Shown: positions 1,078 through 35,252 of the stretch, piece after piece
Layout of the letters: each line of letters starts with the position of its first letter
Numbering within the stretch: position 1 is the stretch's first letter
Made by a program: the position numbers and the translations under genes
Origin: a virus
Taxonomy: Duplodnaviria > Heunggongvirae > Uroviricota > Caudoviricetes
Length of the DNA stretch: 37,872 nt
Direction: 5' to 3' (one strand)
Virus record (IMG/VR): IMGVR_UViG_2563366845_000004
Span: 1-37,872 of that record
The notes under the pieces: generated by a model
What the model was told of the DNA's origin: nothing
Databases searched by the model: none
Seen by the model: only the letters and a program-made list of their open reading frames with translations

Positions 1078-1138
1078 AAATTTAACTGTATATTTAAACA
1101 GTTATCAATGTATGTTTAGGATGAAATAAACATTGGCC

Positions 1139-2138: not shown

Positions 2139-3077
2139 TTAAATTTCCTTTGAAAAAACGCAACAACATTTTGCGATGGTTGTAATGTCTTCAAGCTTAC
2201 AAACAAAATCAGTTGTATCTGATGTGATTTTTACTTTTCCAACTGGAATTCTTGTTAATTTTCTTAAACTTACTTTACCTTCAATCTCAATCAACCAACT
2301 ACCATCTGAAACATCATCATATTCTGTATCTGCAATAAAGGTTTTTCCTTCTGCGGTAACTCCAATCGGTTTTTTCAATCCGGAAGGTATAAGCGTCTTG
2401 TCAAATGCTAAGTAGCCTTCATCATGTAATTTACCGTCAATGATTGTTTGGTGTTTAAGTTGGGCTACAGAGCTGGAATTATCGAAAAATTTGGGGCCAT
2501 TGCCGTTTGTGAGCCAGAGTAATGAAGCTCCTGTTTCAAGAGCGCATTGAATGATCCAATCGCTAGGAAACGTGTCTCGTAAGTACCTGTTTGCTACAGT
2601 GCTTTTTGAAACCTGCAAATGGTTTGCTAGGGCTTGTCGGGTGCTAAAGCCGTAGGCTGCGACTAAGCGATCAATTGCCGCCTTCCCTCCTTTATTAGGA
2701 TTTATGCTGGTCTCGATTGGGAACTTTTGGACTGTTGAGTTAGTTCTATCCGGGTCATCAGATTTGGTATGGGCTAAACGTTCATCATTTAATAAAACTG
2801 AGGGTGATTCACAGCTGATTCCTGATGCCAACCAGTCGATAGATGCGCCGGTCTCTATACTGCAAATTATCACCCAGTCAGCAGGAAATGTGTCACGAGC
2901 ATACCTGTTAGCCATCGTGCTTTGTGAGATACCCAGATGATTGCAAAATGCTTGCCGCGAAGTAAAACCATACGCAACAAGTATACGCTCAATTACTTTC
3001 TGTCCCCCACGGTTTTGCATTATTGAAGTTTTTAGACTCTCGCTAACATGGCGAAATGTGTTTTTTTGAGTTGACAT
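2139..3077 (-). CDS. cI: 186 CI-like immunity repressor with tandemly duplicated N-terminal HTH domain
   Basis: 312 aa; two consecutive copies of the CI N-terminal domain (…ERILVAYGFTSRQAFCNHLGISQSTMANRYARDTFPADW…ETGASIDWL… and …DRLVAAYGFSTRQALANHLQVSKSTVANRYLRDTFPSDW…ETGASLLWL…), then a C-terminal region resembling the 186 CI C-terminal domain (SDGSWLIEIEGKVSLRKLT). Divergent from the apl-like gene. Confidence 0.7.
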   Translation of the reverse strand: MSTQKNTFRHVSESLKTSIMQNRGGQKVIERILVAYGFTSRQAFCNHLGISQSTMANRYARDTFPADWVIICSIETGASIDWLASGISCESPSVLLNDERLAHTKSDDPDRTNSTVQKFPIETSINPNKGGKAAIDRLVAAYGFSTRQALANHLQVSKSTVANRYLRDTFPSDWIIQCALETGASLLWLTNGNGPKFFDNSSSVAQLKHQTIIDGKLHDEGYLAFDKTLIPSGLKKPIGVTAEGKTFIADTEYDDVSDGSWLIEIEGKVSLRKLTRIPVGKVKITSDTTDFVCKLEDITTIAKCCCVFSKEI

Positions 3078-5220: not shown

Positions 5221-6074
5221 GCACCATCCTGAAATGGGCGGGAAATAAAACCGCAATTATGTCCGAACTGAAAAAACACCTTCCTGCTGGCCCGCGACTG
5301 GTTGAACCTTTCGCGGGTTCCTGTGCTGTGATGATGGCGACGGATTATCCAAGCTATCTGGTTGCGGATATTAATCCTGATTTAATCAACCTCTATAAAA
5401 AGGTTGCCGCTGATTGTGAATCGTTTATATCTCGCGCCAGAGTTTTATTTAAGGAAGCAAACAGGGAGGTGGCTTATTACAACATAAGGCAGGAGTTTAA
5501 TTACTCAACTGAAATTACTGATTTCATGAAAGCGGTATATTTCCTGTATCTCAATCGTCACGGTTACCGTGGTTTATGTCGCTATAACAAGAGCGGGCAT
5601 TTCAACATTCCCTACGGTAATTATAAAAATCCGTATTTCCCTGAAAAAGAAATTCGCGCATTTGCAGAAAAAGCCCAGCGGGCAACGTTTATCTGCGCCA
5701 GCTTTGATGAAACGCTGGCGATGTTGAAGGCGGGGGATGTGGTGTATTGCGATCCGCCGTATGACGGCACGTTTTCCGGTTATCACACTGACGGCTTCAC
5801 TGAAGATGACCATTATCACCTGGCATCCGTTCTTGAACATCGGTCATCAGAAGGACATCCGGTCATTGTTTCTAACAGTGACACATCCCTGATCCGTTCG
5901 CTGTATCGCAATTTTACTCACCACTACATCAAGGCAAAACGCAGCATCGGCGTAGCAGCTGGTGAGAGTAAATCTGCAACAGAAATCATCGCTGTTTCTG
6001 GGGCGCGCTGCTGGGTGGGATTTGATCCTTCGCGTGGCGTGGATAGTTCTGCCGTGTACGGAGTGCGTGCATGA
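5217..6074 (+). CDS. dam: DNA adenine methyltransferase (Dam-type N6-adenine MTase, orphan)
   Basis: N-terminal ILKWAGNK...PFAGSCAV (AdoMet-binding) and catalytic DPPY motif ([10 protein letters not shown]); start is an internal ATG of ORF 5157..6074. Confidence 0.85.
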
Positions 6075-8485
6075 GCCATGCTGATATGAACAACTGCAGC
6101 GGCTTTAACGAGGCCGCCGCAGCATTCTCATGGAACAGCCCGAAAAAGTCTATTAACCCTTATCTGGACCCGGCGGAAGTTGCGCCGGTTTCTGCGCTTT
6201 CAAACCTGATCACTCTGTACGCTGTCGATAACGAGCAGGAACAACTGCGTCGCGAGGCACTGAGTGATCAGGTCTGGGAGCGTTATTTCTTTAATGAATC
6301 CCGTGATCCTGTCCACCGCGAAATGGAGCAGGATAAGCTCATTAGCCGGGCAAAGCTGGCGCATGAGCAGCAGCGTTTTAATCCAGATATGGTCATTCTG
6401 GCGGACGTCAATGCCCAGCCTTCCCATATCAGCAAGCCGCTGATGCAACGTATTGAATACTTCAGCAGCCTGGGCAGGCCAAAGGCTTATTCCCGCTATT
6501 TGCGTGAGACGATTAAGCCATGTCTGGAACGACTGGAGCATGTACGCGACTGTCAGCTATCCACTTCTTTTCGCTTTATGGCAAGCCATGAAGGGCTGGA
6601 CGGCCTGCTGATCCTGCCTGAAATGAGTCAGGATCAGGTGAAGCGCCTGTCTACCCTTGTCGCCGCGCATATGAGCATGTGCCTTGATGCAGCTTGTGGT
6701 GATTTGTATGCCACCGATGACGTTAAGCCAGAAGAAATCCGCAAGACATGGGAAAAGGTGGCAGCGGAAACCCTGCGTCTGGATGTTATCCCGCCTGCGT
6801 TTGAGCAACTCCGTCGGAAAAGAAACCGCCGTAAACCCGTGCCTTATGAACTCATTCCGGGTTCGCTGGCGCGTATGTTATGCGCCGACTGGTGGTATCG
6901 GAAATTATGGAAGATGCGTTGCGAATGGCGGGAAGAGCAGTTGCGTGCTGTTTGCCTGGTCAGCAAAAAAGCATCTCCCTATGTCAGCTATGAAGCCGTG
7001 ATGCATAAACGTGAGCAGCGCCGTAAGTCGCTGGAGTTTTTCCGTTCTCATGAACTGGTGAACGAAGACGGCGACACGCTGGATATGGAAGACGTGGTAA
7101 ACGCCAGCAGCAGCAACCCTGCGCATCGCCGCAATGAGATGATGGCCTGTGTTAAAGGTCTGGAGCTTATCGCGGAAATGCGCGGTGACTGCGCCGTTTT
7201 CTACACCATCACCTGTCCGTCACGTTTCCATTCCACGCTAAATAACGGCAGGCCCAACCCGACCTGGACAAATGCGACGGTAAGACAAAGCAGTGATTAT
7301 CTGGTCGGTATGTTTGCTGCATTTCGTAAGGCGATGCACAAAGCCGGATTGCGCTGGTATGGCGTGCGGGTGGCTGAGCCGCATCATGACGGTACAGTTC
7401 ACTGGCACCTGTTGTGTTTTATGCGCAAAAAAGATCGCCGCGCCATTACTGCTTTGTTGCGTAAGTTTGCCATTCGTGAAGACCGCGAGGAGCTGGGTAA
7501 TAACACGGGACCACGCTTTAAGTCTGAGCTGATAAACCCGCGCAAAGGTACGCCAACAAGCTACATCGCGAAATACATCAGTAAGAACATTGACGGGCGT
7601 GGTCTGGCTGGCGAGATCAGCAAGGAAACGGGTAAATCCCTGCGTGATAACGCTGAATACGTTAATGCCTGGGCGTCTCTGCATCGTGTTCAGCAATTCC
7701 GCTTCTTTGGCATTCCGGGGCGTCAGGCTTACCGTGAACTGCGATTGCTGGCTGGTCAGGCGGCAAGGCAACAGGGGGACAAAAAAGCAGGTGCGCCGGT
7801 ACTGGATAACCCGCGTCTTGATGCCATCCTGGCTGCTGCTGATGCTGGTTGTTTTGCCACCTACATCATGAAGCAGGGCGGCGTACTGGTTCCCCGCAAA
7901 TATCACCTCATCAGAACCGCTTATGAAATCAACGAAGAGCCGACCGCCTATGGCGATCACGGCATTCGTATTTATGGCATCTGGTCACCCATTGCAGAGG
8001 GCAAGATCTGCACTCATGCGGTGAAGTGGAAAATGGTTCGTAAGGCCGTTGACATTCAGGAGGCGGCAGCCGACCAGGGCGCTTGCGCCCCTTGGACTCG
8101 TGGCAATAACTGTCCCCTTGCTGAAAATTTGTACCAACAAGGGAAAGACAAATCAGCTGATGGAGATACCAGAACGGATATCACCCGTATGGATGACAAG
8201 GAGTTGCACGATTACCTGCACAGTATGAGCAAAAAAGAGCGCCGGGAACTGGCAGCAAGGTTACGCCTGGTGAAACCGAAACGGCGTAAAGACTACAAAC
8301 AGCGAATTACAGATCATCAGCGACAGCAGCTCGTGTATGAACTGAAGTCCAGGGGATTTGATGGCAGCGAGAAAGAGGTCGATTTACTCCTTCGCGGCGG
8401 CAGTATTCCATCAGGAGCAGGCCTGCGTATCTTCTATCGGAACCAGCGTTTGCAGGAAGATGATAAGTGGCGGGATCTGTATTAA
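6071..8485 (+). CDS. Replication initiation endonuclease (P2 gpA-like rolling-circle initiator)
   Basis: 804 aa; HUH-type motif (VHWHLLCF) and downstream tyrosine-containing region (YIAKYISKN); size and position as P2 gene A. Confidence 0.85.
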
Positions 8486-8577
8486 TTACGCGGGTTAACA
8501 ATTCGTGCTCTTAATAATACCAGGCATATCAGGCTGATGAACGTAAAAAAACGTTTTACATCAGTAAGATTATTATA

Positions 8578-8597
8578 TACTGTAAATATAAACAGTG
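8578..8597. promoter_or_regulatory. LexA (SOS) box TACTGTAAATATAAACAGTG upstream of the Tum/DinI-like genes
   Basis: CTGT-N8-ACAG with an AT-rich spacer matches the E. coli LexA consensus; a candidate -35 TTTACA lies at 8555..8560 and an extra ACAGTAT half-site at 8607..8613. Confidence 0.7.
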
Positions 8598-8638
8598 GTT
8601 ATGTGTACAGTATTGCTTGTGGTGTCATAGGAGGAAAA

Positions 8639-8827
8639 ATGCAGGACTATTTTTTGGAGTCTTTGAAGCTCCAGCGCATTGATTTTTTTCTTAAGCTTGT
8701 AGCGGCTAGTGAGTGTAGTGATGAAGAGAAGGGGCTGGCTCTGCAGTGGGTTTCTGAATTGACTGATGAACTCATGGCAAAAATCAGAAGCCACGAATAC
8801 AACCGCTCAATGGATGTCATCAGCTGA
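8639..8827 (+). CDS. Small SOS-regulated protein (possible Tum-like antirepressor N-terminal part)
   Basis: 62 aa, strong AGGAGG RBS, immediately downstream of the LexA box and followed 10 nt later by a DinI-like ORF. Confidence 0.5.
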   Translation: MQDYFLESLKLQRIDFFLKLVAASECSDEEKGLALQWVSELTDELMAKIRSHEYNRSMDVIS

Positions 8828-8837
8828 GGTGACTTTT

Positions 8838-9071
8838 ATGCGCATTGAAATAATGATCGATAAAGAGCAGAAAATTAGCCAGTCTACCCTGGACGCCCTT
8901 GAATCCGAGCTTTACCGCAGTCTGCGCCCCCTGTATCCCAAAACGGTAATTCGTATCCGCAAAGGTAGCTCTAACGGTGTGGAACTGACCGGACTGCAAC
9001 TGGACGAAGAAAGAAAACAAGTGATGAAAATTATGCAGAAGGTGTGGGAAGACGACAGCTGGCTGCATTAA
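8838..9071 (+). CDS. DinI-family protein (DinI/Tum C-terminal-like)
   Basis: 77 aa beginning MRIEIMIDKE... and ending ...QKVWEDDSWLH, matching the DinI fold signature; GAGGTGA RBS. Confidence 0.75.
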   Translation: MRIEIMIDKEQKISQSTLDALESELYRSLRPLYPKTVIRIRKGSSNGVELTGLQLDEERKQVMKIMQKVWEDDSWLH

Positions 9072-9079
9072 GAAATGTT

Positions 9080-9118
9080 GCCCCCAGGAGGATTCATTCT
9101 GATGGGGGCTGGTTTTGG
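9080..9118 (+). terminator. Putative terminator after the DinI-like gene
   Basis: GCCCCCA...TGGGGGC 7-bp GC stem with a 16-nt loop, followed by TGGTTTTGG. Confidence 0.35.
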
Positions 9119-9683
9119 CAACGAGTGAAACGAGGCGTAAGGTGGGGGGCATTTTGATAAGTGCTCGTTCGCTTTGTGCCAGAGGCGGAAGTTGTTACAG
9201 CTGTTGTCTTACCCAATGGGGAGCATCTCGGAAATTTTCGACCCAACGCTGCGAACGATAAAGAAATAGTGGCCGCTTGAGTTTAGGCCTAAACTGTTTC
9301 TTGTTAGAAGAAACGCTTAAGTCGGCATGCCGTGCTATCCGCTAGGGTAGGCCGGAGCTTGGCTAGTGCTTGCAAGTATGCTACAAACACATTAGCACAT
9401 ATAACATGTATTTTGCAGTACTCCTAGAGTATAATAAGGCCAGTAGTATTGAAAAAAGGGTTGTTAAGTAGACGCACAATAATTCTACAGTTCTTGGATT
9501 TGATGAATAGATGCTAAAATGTATGCTTCAATTATTCAATCTATAAGAGGGAGCAGAGAAAAAATAAGGTGGCAGGAGGTGTTAGACCACTAAATTTAAA
9601 TCGTGAGATAAATATGGAGCCATAAACCTATGGAGGGAATGGCAAAAGCTAAAATTATAGACTAAAAATGGACGGTGTGAATA

Positions 9684-9956
9684 ATGGCGATTTTTGATAA
9701 ACAGCAGGCCATAAAAAAACTAACAGAAAAAAATGCTTTATTACCATGCCATAGATGTGGGAATAAGTCATTTGGAATTGTTGATGGAGTGACTTCCTAT
9801 TCATTAGTTAATGATCCAAATATGATAGGTAGTGTGATTGTTGGAGGAGCCTCTCTGCCTGTGTTACATGTTTTTTGTGAAAACTGTGGAGCCTTAACTT
9901 CTCATTCTTTGGGCATTCTAGAACTATTACCAAAGGAAGACGAAAATGGGGGGTAG
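9684..9956 (+). CDS. Small zinc-ribbon protein (CxxC...CxxC), first gene of a two-gene cargo cassette
   Basis: 90 aa with CHRCGN ... CENCG; AT-rich; overlaps the downstream gene by 11 nt (ATGGGGGGTAG). Confidence 0.5.
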   Translation: MAIFDKQQAIKKLTEKNALLPCHRCGNKSFGIVDGVTSYSLVNDPNMIGSVIVGGASLPVLHVFCENCGALTSHSLGILELLPKEDENGG

Positions 9957-10416
9957 TACTTTTAACTCTACGGTGAATGGTGAAAAATCTCCTGCAGTAA
10001 CACCCTCGCAAGTTATTATTAATGAGGACGGGGATTTTACTGATAAAATAGTTAGACAGACTAAAGTTGAAGTTATAGTTATTAGCGATGATAAGTTGCA
10101 TATAATACTGACGAATTGCCTTGGTAGAATAACAAGTTTAAATAAATGGACTACTCCGCTTGGTATCTTAGTTACGCTTGCAGTAACTATGTTAACAACA
10201 AATTTTAAGGAATTTATCCTTAGCGCACATGTCTGGGAAGCTATGTTCTGGATTATTACAATACTCAATGTGGTATGGCTAATTAAGTCCATCCCTTACA
10301 GGCACATATGGATTGAGTTTCTTCATTTCTTTGGCAGAGGAGAACAGATGAAAAGTATTCGAGATGTTAGGCATATAATAGAAAAAATAAAGAGTGGTGA
10401 TACTGGAATTAATTGA
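9946..10416 (+). CDS. Small membrane protein, second gene of the cassette
   Basis: 156 aa with two hydrophobic helices (LGILVTLAVTMLTT; AMFWIITILNVVWLI); AGGAAG RBS; translationally coupled to the zinc-ribbon gene. Confidence 0.5.
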   Translation: MGGSTFNSTVNGEKSPAVTPSQVIINEDGDFTDKIVRQTKVEVIVISDDKLHIILTNCLGRITSLNKWTTPLGILVTLAVTMLTTNFKEFILSAHVWEAMFWIITILNVVWLIKSIPYRHIWIEFLHFFGRGEQMKSIRDVRHIIEKIKSGDTGIN

Positions 10417-11107: not shown

Positions 11108-12547
11108 ATGACGCCAAAAGTTTTTATATCATATAGTTGGAGTAGCCCAGCTCATAAGGAAAGAGTTAAAGCAATAGCTGATAGACTTTTGAGTGATGGA
11201 GTGGATGTTGTCATTGACATATATGATTTGAAGGAGGGCAATGATAAAAACGCATTCATGGAAAAAATGATTGTTGATAAAAGTATCACCAATGTGCTTG
11301 TGATGTGTGATTCAGTTTACGCAAAAAAAGCTGATAACAAACAAAGTGGGGTTGGCACAGAATCCCAGATCATCTCTCAACAAGTCTACACAAAAGTCGA
11401 ACAATCAAAATTTATACCTATTGTTTGTGAATTTGATGAGAATTCAGAACCTTGTCTTCCTGTTTTTATGAGTTCGCTAATATGGATTGACCTTTCAACA
11501 CCAGAAAAAGAAAATCAAAATTGGGAACGGTTAGTAAGGCTGCTTAATGGAAAACCAGCAGATATAAAACCTAAGCTTGGAAAAAGACCAAGTTATTTAG
11601 ATAGTGGGCAATATGATCCGGTGAGTGAACCACACGCAAAATTTAATAGCTTGAAACAAGCTGTTTTGCAAAATAGGGCAGGTGTTAGTTATTATCGGCG
11701 TGATTTCGTTGATTCAGTAGTCAAGTACCTTGACGGGATGAGAATCCGAGCTCGCCCAGAGCAAAATGATTTACAAAGCATGGGTAGGAAAATAATTAGC
11801 GACGTTGCTGCCATGAAGCCTATCAGGGATTATGTGTGTGAATGGATAACTCTTGAGGCAGAGTTTACGATGCAGGATGAATTTTCAACAGAACTAGTAA
11901 AGTTCTTTGAAAAAGTTCTGTTACTAACCGAAGCTCCTAGCGATGTCAGTTCATGGCAATTAAACTGGTATGATGCACAAAAGGTATTTGCATACGAAAT
12001 TTTCTTATATTCAGTTGCTATATTGATTAGATTAGAGAAGTTTCAATTAGTACGTGCGATTTTATCTGCCAGATTCCTTTCTGGTGATAGGCAGTTACCA
12101 CCGGAACATAGACTCGTGTCAATTAGCGCTTTCTTAGCTGATTCTGAAACGCTACAGGCAGGTTTTGAAGAAGATATAAGGTATTACTCTCCAGTTGCAG
12201 AGCTAATTAAAAGAAATGCAGATAGGGAAGATATTACCTTTTCTGATCTTATGCAGGCTGATGTGCTAGTTCTTTTTTATTCATTTTGTAATGATGGTGT
12301 CTATTGGTATCCATGCACTATTCATTATGCGAGTTATAATTATAGACCTGAACTATTTTTAAGAGCGACACAGCATAAGTATTTTGAATATTTAGCAATG
12401 ATTGCCGGGATAGCGTCAGCGCAAGAGATCAAATTGAAGGTTAAGGCCGGCGCTCAGAGTATGCATAATTCAGGGGTTAGATATGGACGTATGGGGACTG
12501 GTTTTGAAAGTATGATGAACGCCGATAACCTTGATTTTATAAAATGA
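11108..12547 (+). CDS. SEFIR/TIR-domain protein with an uncharacterised C-terminal domain (candidate single-gene antiphage effector)
   Basis: 479 aa; N-terminus KVFISYSWSSPAHKERVKAIADRLLSDGVDVVIDIYDL...NVLVMCDSVY fits the SEFIR/TIR (STIR) signature; moderately AT-rich; convergent with the portal gene. Confidence 0.65.
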   Translation: MTPKVFISYSWSSPAHKERVKAIADRLLSDGVDVVIDIYDLKEGNDKNAFMEKMIVDKSITNVLVMCDSVYAKKADNKQSGVGTESQIISQQVYTKVEQSKFIPIVCEFDENSEPCLPVFMSSLIWIDLSTPEKENQNWERLVRLLNGKPADIKPKLGKRPSYLDSGQYDPVSEPHAKFNSLKQAVLQNRAGVSYYRRDFVDSVVKYLDGMRIRARPEQNDLQSMGRKIISDVAAMKPIRDYVCEWITLEAEFTMQDEFSTELVKFFEKVLLLTEAPSDVSSWQLNWYDAQKVFAYEIFLYSVAILIRLEKFQLVRAILSARFLSGDRQLPPEHRLVSISAFLADSETLQAGFEEDIRYYSPVAELIKRNADREDITFSDLMQADVLVLFYSFCNDGVYWYPCTIHYASYNYRPELFLRATQHKYFEYLAMIAGIASAQEIKLKVKAGAQSMHNSGVRYGRMGTGFESMMNADNLDFIK

Positions 12548-35040: not shown

Positions 35041-35252
35041 CGTTAAAAAACAGTGCTTCTAACATCATGATTTTAAAAGGTATAAATTTCAGGCAACAAA
35101 AAACCCACCAACCTTGAACCAAAATGGCGGGGTTGATGGGCTCCACAAAATGGGGACATCAAAGAAAAGCAGTGGCACTAATTAAGACTGATGCCCTGCG
35201 GAAAAGTTCTGCGGTTGTGCAAAAAAATTTCATTTTCAGGGCAACTTCAGTT

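Follow-up and report, generated by a model that had tools for sequence, protein, structure and literature searches.

A two-gene tumAB module behind a dual LexA operator as the probable SOS-induction operon of a Fels-2-type prophage

A LexA-type box followed by two short open reading frames (ORFs), one of them related to DinI, raises the question of whether such a locus is the switch by which a prophage responds to DNA damage, and whether its two ORFs are natural genes or the remains of a frameshifted tum gene. The locus in question lies at positions 8555-9071 of the IMG/VR virus record IMGVR_UViG_2563366845_000004, of which the whole stretch of 37,872 nucleotides (nt), here called the window, was analysed; the window is a P2/186-like prophage. 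A preliminary description, made from the sequence alone, had taken the locus for a Tum-like antirepressor module that would probably render the prophage SOS-inducible, and had left the second question undecided. We read the module as the operon for SOS induction in a prophage of the Fels-2 type (186-like, Peduoviridae), with a probability of roughly 80%. The system itself is known: both published work and GenBank entries describe a split tum in Fels-2 and in PSP3, and the present locus is a further, ordinary copy of it.

The second ORF (ORF2, tumB-like; plus strand, 8838-9071, with its ATG at 8838 and TAA at 9069-9071) encodes 77 amino acids (aa) and was readily placed. It matched the Pfam DinI family, PF06183, over profile positions 1-63 of 63 (2.4e-22, 79.5 bits against a cutoff of 24.2) and the structure of E. 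coli DinI, 1GHH, over its full length, residues 1-75 (E 3.6e-6), with its C-terminal WEDDSW motif aligned with the region of the DinI C-terminal helix, in agreement with the family to which it had been assigned at first reading. ORF2 is 41% identical to residues 71-145 of 186 Tum (E 4e-24), so that it also corresponds to the DinI-like half of Tum, as had been supposed. The alignment begins at the valine that is the internal GTG start of 186, from which, according to the notes in the 186 GenBank record, a DinI-like 'truncated Tum' is made that is said to modulate SOS induction. TumB of PSP3 is 77% identical to ORF2, and a single nonsynonymous change separates ORF2 from TumB of Fels-2.

The first ORF (ORF1, tumA-like; plus strand, 8639-8827, with its ATG at 8639 and TGA at 8825-8827; 62 aa) is the presumptive CI antirepressor. 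No alignment with 186 Tum was obtained by BLASTP, Pfam returned no significant family for ORF1 and a sequence search of the PDB gave zero matches. The AlphaFold2 model of ORF1 is a two-helix hairpin, with helices at residues 2-22 and 28-61 and a predicted local distance difference test (pLDDT) score of 86.7, and Foldseek comparison of this model with the PDB returned nothing below an E of 0.9, so that this generic hairpin is uninformative. ORF1 was matched over its full length by PHROG 698 (6e-38), a stand-alone family with a 63-position profile, and a search of 1.84 billion representative proteins yielded only 67 relatives, nearly all of 55-75 aa; none of the ORF1 relatives has the fused architecture of Tum, those detectable being nearly all short stand-alone proteins of ~55-100 aa. 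Profile comparison connected this family to Tum. An ORF1 profile built from 31 diverse members aligned without gaps with the profile of the 186-type Tum N-terminal domain, columns 4-44 to columns 4-44. The hhalign probability was 97.7% (E 2e-12), a value that fell to 96.7% (E 4e-10) when the bridging Yersinia sequence was left out, against a maximum of 1.2% for 20 column-shuffled control profiles. A 'tum protein' of 60 aa from a Yersinia phage was matched at the same place by both queries, ORF1 and Tum, and residues M1, E7, R13, C26 and A34 are nearly invariant in the joint alignment. On this evidence ORF1 is best described as a divergent and remote member of the Tum N-terminal (TumA) family, ~20% identical to the N-terminal domain of 186 Tum and detectable as such only by profile comparison. 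The alignment with 186 Tum that the preliminary description had proposed as a check thus came out for ORF2, and for ORF1 failed by BLASTP and came out by profile comparison; with both halves matching 186 Tum, the reading of the locus as a Tum-like module is supported.

The 186-type N-terminal domain is itself found as a stand-alone protein of 63-78 aa, 75-97% identical to that of 186 and named 'Tum protein' (entries P0226, P0241, P0248, P0268 and P0292; Salmonella, Kluyvera, Klebsiella, Enterobacter and Edwardsiella), from which it follows that the two halves of tum have been joined and separated within the 186 type as well.

The two ORFs are separated by 10 nt (8828-8837) and ORF2 lies in the +1 frame relative to ORF1, just as had been read at the outset. 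Since both halves form a single 146-aa protein in 186, this arrangement could in principle be that of a recently frameshifted, decaying tum pseudogene. The ratio of nonsynonymous to synonymous substitution rates (dN/dS), determined for each ORF in its own frame with Fels-2, Klebsiella phage 4LV2017 and SopEPhi as comparators, is 0.06-0.11 for ORF1 and 0.06-0.08 for ORF2 at dS values of up to about 1, and both genes are therefore under purifying selection as they stand. Each has its own Shine-Dalgarno sequence on the plus strand as read from the sequence, GGAGG at 8630-8634 for ORF1 and GAGG at 8826-8829, overlapping the tumA stop codon, for ORF2. The element (ATA)GGAGG(G)AA is kept ahead of the ORF1 start codon across loci, and in SopEPhi an equivalent purine-rich element precedes tumB although the junction sequence is different.

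Further evidence came from a species-level comparison of 36 loci, from different Enterobacterales species and each encoding an ORF1 relative. The sequence and length of the junction between the genes vary, with 3 nt in PSP3 as against 9-13 nt in the species loci, and such stop-plus-restart junctions were found in PSP3, SopEPhi and 20 of the species loci. All three relative frames occur among the loci that carry TumB (spacers of 9 or 12 nt, n=6; 10 or 13 nt, n=6; 11 nt, n=7). TumA stands without a DinI-like gene after it in 16 of the 36 loci, and in two further loci TumB is apparently truncated or frameshifted while TumA is intact. The low dN/dS values, the separate Shine-Dalgarno sequences, the variable spacer and frame and the frequent occurrence of TumA alone settle the matter in favour of two natural genes over a frameshifted tum. 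A pseudogene, against which the stand-alone PHROG 698 family and the stand-alone 186-type N-terminal proteins also speak, was rejected on the dN/dS values and on the variable length and frame of the spacer, and is extremely improbable. The same grounds dispose of a programmed +1 frameshift or stop-codon bypass at the junction, by which a fused Tum-like protein would be the functional product. The ORF2 frame is indeed open for 72 nt 5' of its ATG and overlaps the 3' end of ORF1 (8766-9071), but a recoding signal would be difficult to reconcile with a relative frame that is not conserved, with the lack of an evident slippery motif at the junction and with the loci that have TumA and no TumB at all, and we give it hardly any credence. 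The two natural genes therefore make the module a tumA/tumB variant, and not tum in the strict 186 sense of one polypeptide of ~146 aa; the fused protein of 186 represents just one of several states and should not be taken as the norm.

The lengths of homologues and the Shine-Dalgarno sequences indicate that the true starts are 8639 and 8838. A longer version of ORF1 in the list of ORFs, with 96 aa, starts at 8537, 5' of the promoter, and is an ORF-calling artefact; the listed 101-aa version of ORF2 (8766-9071) overlaps ORF1. Public gene calls also often give 96 aa for ORF1 (P0001 and P0004, for example), from an in-frame ATG 5' of the promoter, and these starts are likely to be mis-set.

The position of the module is that of tum in related phages. 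It follows directly on replication gene A of P2/186 type (plus strand, 6071-8485; Pfam Phage_GPA, 1e-127), as do the corresponding genes in 186, Fels-2 and PSP3, and throughout the 36 loci the gene for the ORF1 relative is downstream of gene A, whose end lies a few hundred nt 5' of TumA in nearly all of the loci where gene A was found. The module of Fels-2 in Salmonella LT2 (STM2728 and STM2726.1) is essentially the same, its DNA being 97.6% identical over the promoter, the operator and both genes; STM2728 has 60 of 62 residues in common with ORF1, a dual SOS box and a spacer of 10 nt are found there likewise, and the Fels-2 record notes that the downstream gene is similar to TumB of PSP3. The two prophages differ in their cargo, which is orf97-like in Fels-2 whereas the window has small ORFs and a bSEFIR gene, and in their CI, which in Fels-2 has 210 aa and one helix-turn-helix (HTH) domain and in the window 312 aa and two.

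PSP3 also has two cistrons after gene A, an upstream LexA box and a CI with two HTH domains. Its record describes tumA as 'similar to 5' end 186 tum; UV induction of prophage' and tumB as 'similar to dinI and 3' end of 186 tum'. Unlike the window, PSP3 has a single LexA box, a 3-nt spacer and a TumA only ~20% identical to ORF1, which is nearer the 186 type (hhalign probability of 84%, against 20% to the ORF1 family). That tum of Fels-2 and PSP3 is split in two by a stop codon was noted by Lemire et al. (PMC3121763), who also cite a personal communication that the upstream gene of PSP3 has antirepressor activity (PMC3121763). In 186, induction works via the LexA-regulated promoter p95 and Tum (PMC7708051 and the notes in the 186 GenBank record), and p95-tum resembles the present module in its place after gene A, in a LexA box that overlaps a TACTGT -10 hexamer, in the homology of the Tum N-terminal domain to ORF1 and of its DinI-like C-terminal half to ORF2, and in having a separate DinI-like product from an internal GTG where ORF2 starts; it differs in that the halves are fused (146 aa), the LexA box is single and orf97 is next in the operon. 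A more distant parallel is found in the phages Gifsy-1, -2 and -3 (gfoA, gftA and gfhA), where a LexA-repressed operon likewise combines a DinI homologue with a small antirepressor of a non-cleavable repressor, although these are lambdoid phages with dinI first in the operon and with unrelated repressor and antirepressor families (PMC3121763). A literature search for 'TumA/TumB' returned only unrelated papers.

We then consider the control region of the module. LexA box 1, TACTGTAAATATAAACAGTG, at 8578-8597, matches 17 of 20 consensus positions, with the CTGT-N8-ACAG core at 8580-8595, and is thus a near-consensus box; it stands 5' of the 62-aa ORF and the DinI-family ORF as previously reported. 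No other site in the window comes within three mismatches of the 20-nt LexA consensus, and none arose in 100 shuffled sequences. The looser CTGT-N8-ACAG pattern is not rare in the window, where two were observed and 0.54 expected, and taken alone is for this reason weak evidence; conservation across loci supports a function more strongly than the pattern does. Among the 35 species-level loci with a complete upstream region, a CTG-N10-CAG box lies 5' of the ORF1 homologue in 34, TACTGT is invariant (35/35), and in 28 TT[TC]ACA precedes TACTGT by exactly 17 nt, the sequence of the intervening spacer being variable. In 186, p95 is annotated as TTCACA, 18 nt and TACTGT, with the -10 hexamer forming the left end of the LexA box. 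The same layout of -35, ~17 nt and TACTGT at the left end of a LexA box recurs here, with the putative -35 hexamer TTTACA at 8555-8560 on the plus strand, assigned from conservation and from analogy with p95, and the inferred -10 hexamer TACTGT at 8578-8583, assigned by analogy with the annotated -10 of p95. TATACT at 8576-8581, with a 15-nt spacer, may be an alternative -10.

The preliminary description had recognised this box but missed a second, LexA box 2, CAGTGGTTATGTGTACAGTA, at 8593-8612, which overlaps the first and shares 5 nt (CAGTG) with it in the manner of the dual operators of colicin genes. A single nt, at a central position, separates box 2 from the box that is promoter-proximal in the ColE1 cea operator; box 2 of Fels-2 is identical to the ColE1 proximal box, and that of the window is a single central A-to-G change away from Fels-2. 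Of 34 related loci, 21 have the right half-site of box 2, TACAGT, in register; it is missing from a mainly Pantoea/Erwinia subgroup, whose single box stands ~40 nt ahead of the start codon. When a 43-nt stretch spanning both boxes was used as the query, 909 plasmid records matched, mostly of mobilizable plasmids, and the three matches examined lie 5' of the colicin E1 gene cea, of a colicin-like bacteriocin gene and of the pesticin gene pst, with CTGT-N8-[AC]CAGTGG-N8-ACAG as the core common to all three operators. The operator of the window thus has two 20-nt boxes that share 5 nt and a near-identical proximal box in common with those of ColE1 cea type; it differs from them in driving a prophage antirepressor, in its -35 and spacer sequences and in its distance to the start codon, 59 nt as compared with 77-79 nt. 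Colicin dual boxes are bound by two LexA dimers and repressed very tightly (PMC2994835), and we infer that the dual operator would make the release of the induction gene from repression tighter and later.

The presumptive target of TumA, by analogy with related phages, is the resident CI repressor (minus strand, 2139-3077; 312 aa). Pfam identified Phage_CI_repr twice (5.6e-55) and Phage_CI_C (1.4e-30) in this protein, the two tandem HTH domains being 60% identical to each other and preceding the C-terminal domain, and no S24 peptidase domain. Its domain content makes this CI a non-cleavable repressor of the 186 type, and in a phage whose repressor has no protease domain an antirepressor is the expected route of induction. 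By analogy with 186, PSP3 and Fels-2, host LexA would in the lysogen occupy the two overlapping SOS boxes (8578-8612) over the -10 and start of a sigma-70 promoter and keep the operon silent; upon DNA damage, active RecA would trigger self-cleavage of LexA and the promoter would fire. TumA, the 62-aa product of the first cistron, would then bind the non-cleavable CI and keep it off its operators, so that the lytic promoter becomes derepressed. TumB would be translated as second cistron from its own ribosome-binding site 10 nt downstream and, as the equivalent of the C-terminal half of Tum and of the internally initiated truncated Tum of 186, would most likely modulate RecA filaments and the SOS signal, and would not be needed for antirepression. 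SOS induction of the prophage would be the outcome of these steps.

Together with the failure of BLASTP, Pfam and Foldseek to place ORF1, a number of observations weigh against this reading. A strict consensus promoter scan called no promoter at the module, and the promoter assignment consequently rests on homology to p95 and on conservation. The left half of box 2 is degenerate, with GTG instead of CTG. The antirepressor result for PSP3 is second-hand and its TumA is only distantly related to ORF1. The Salmonella relative BTP5 has tum and released no detectable phage (PMC7067206). The most serious points concern the match between TumA and CI. The resident CI, with its two HTH domains, is only 43% identical to that of Fels-2 although the TumA proteins are 97% identical, and more generally TumA is 97-100% identical in phages whose CIs are 40-52% identical and have 189, 210 or 312-313 aa. 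A CI with two HTH domains is present also in PSP3 (286 aa) and in Klebsiella phage 4LV2017 (313 aa), whereas only one HTH domain is found in the CI of Fels-2, SopEPhi, 186 and each of the 36 species-level loci. Across 32 related loci (496 pairs), TumA identity correlates with that of gene A (Spearman 0.78) and not with that of CI, either in the HTH domain (rho -0.02) or in the linker and C-terminal domain (rho -0.12). Without co-variation of TumA and CI, a matched pair is not to be assumed here.

In pairs of loci with TumA at least 90% identical, the median identity of the CI HTH domain is 65% (minimum 35%) and that of the C-terminal domains 32%. By these comparisons, immunity region and tum module are reshuffled independently of each other, and one TumA sequence keeps company with many heteroimmune repressors. 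We also considered whether the type of TumA tracks the type of CI HTH domain. Between the three TumA types (Fels-2, 186 and PSP3; ~20% identity) the CI HTH types do differ as well, with 27-48% identity, but the correspondence is only coarse and fails within the family, as the rho of -0.02 indicates. That TumB of PSP3 is still 77% identical to ORF2 while the TumA types share only ~20% fits TumA being the phage-directed part of the module and TumB the host-directed part.

These data leave room for another explanation, in which the module is SOS-induced but TumA does not inactivate the CI beside it, a near-fixed TumA having recombined next to a heterologous immunity region. The prophage itself would then not be SOS-inducible, and the operon would serve only as a DinI-type modulator of RecA or act in trans on other resident 186-like prophages. 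The disparity between TumA and CI identities, the differing CI architectures, with the two-HTH form of the window seen in none of the 36 species-level loci, and the correlation with gene A and not with CI are all as expected from such a mismatch, as is the behaviour of BTP5. Antirepressors that act on non-cognate repressors are moreover documented, in the form of the cross-talk of the Gifsy antirepressors (PMC3121763). Against it, 34 co-resident CI variants have ~25 near-invariant HTH positions in common, from which a shared surface for TumA binding could be built; purifying selection on the module is strong in every one of these backgrounds; and Klebsiella phage 4LV2017, a deposited phage genome, combines a two-HTH CI with a TumA that is 98% identical. 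Loss of LexA is also reportedly lethal in Salmonella LT2 owing to Fels-2, as the title of Bunny et al. 2002 has it. We consider the mismatch unlikely on balance, although it deserves far more weight than a pseudogene or recoding.

Strong purifying selection on tumA in every background leads us to favour a TumA that would recognise the ~25 near-invariant positions of the HTH scaffold and so be of broad spectrum, in the way described for the Gifsy antirepressors, over a set of TumA-CI combinations some of which are mismatched. The SOS-induction operon thus remains the preferred reading of the module, and doubt about the specificity of TumA for CI makes us less confident that this prophage is SOS-inducible than we are of the identification of the module.

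The module was found in 1125 of 5426 complete E. coli genomes, about a fifth, where its genes are usually annotated as 'hypothetical protein' and 'DinI-like family protein'. For annotators this would mean that a common family of E. coli prophages is linked to the SOS response by way of an antirepressor instead of by repressor cleavage, and that such labels conceal an induction switch. With the split tum already in the literature and in GenBank, current understanding is unchanged. What goes beyond the descriptions that we found is the dual operator of colicin type, the absence of co-variation between TumA and CI and a LexA-type box ahead of int, which we regard as modest but testable leads. We offer only tentatively, and at less than even odds, the combined proposal that a near-invariant TumA acts with broad spectrum on heteroimmune CIs, those with two HTH domains included, through the ~25 HTH positions and so synchronises induction among different 186-like prophages, with SOS control in this lineage at both the tumAB and the int promoters. 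If this were true, the dual-box tumAB promoter would provide a tight, late and all-or-none commitment, and a promoter with a LexA box ahead of int would supply Int only upon induction.

The box in question is at 1084-1103 (plus strand AACTGTATATTTAAACAGTT) and begins ~50 nt 5' of the ATG of int (minus strand, 1-1053) on the int strand, where it takes up the whole 17-nt spacer between the promoter-like hexamers TTGATA and TTAAAT; a hairpin with a T-run (GCCCTCTGATATGAGGGC-TTTTT) follows the box and abuts the int ATG. Eight loci have this type of integrase (77-100% identity), namely the window and L011, L015, L016, L017, L023, L048 and L052, and all eight have a CTG-N10-CAG box 49-52 nt 5' of the ATG with varying inner bases, as compared with none of the 28 loci with other integrase types. 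This pattern suggests a LexA-repressed int promoter, that is, an SOS-inducible Int, and we found no description of a LexA box before int.

Downstream of the module, the similarity to Fels-2 stops at the stop codon of ORF2. A GC-rich hairpin, GCCCCCA...UGGGGGC followed by UGGUUUUGG, lies at 9080-9119 on the plus strand (-19.1 kcal/mol), in the position of the partial terminator t95a of 186, with variable cargo beyond it. The hairpin may be a partial terminator like t95a, possibly a weak one; its z-score is only -1.5 and it was not called by the terminator scan. The scan did give a match at 8816-8833, which spans the junction of ORF1 and ORF2 and was not taken as a terminator. An Rfam search found no RNA family in or near the module.

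The ~610 nt directly after the module (9072-9683) are poor in ORFs. Two small overlapping ORFs come next, within 9072-10416, one of 90 aa with a weak Lar/zinc-ribbon-like match and one of 156 aa, for which no Rfam or PADLOC match was obtained; the same pair is present in an E. coli prophage that has a retron in place of bSEFIR. In the window, a 479-aa TIR/SEFIR protein encoded on the plus strand at 11108-12547 matched the PADLOC bSEFIR defence model (4.6e-104), its gene occupying the stretch of variable content that separates the tum module from the portal gene. Different cargo takes this place in related prophages, for instance a retron St85 system or an orf97-like gene.

The early region contains, in addition to the genes described above, an apl-like gene, cII, a DNA adenine methylase (dam-like) gene and a cargo gene next to int. 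The last of these, on the minus strand at 1139-2206 between cI and int, encodes 355 aa with a weak Pfam match of coiled-coil type and had no PADLOC match; most of it is present in only 24 of 5426 E. coli genomes, and prophages with the same int have a different gene at this position, for example one of the DUF4041 or YdcA families. At the other end of the window, Rfam identified the host small RNA gene RybB on the minus strand at 35095-35173 (104.8 bits), from which the window appears to extend into the host chromosome at that end, and the flank at the int end in related E. coli genomes is rcdA.

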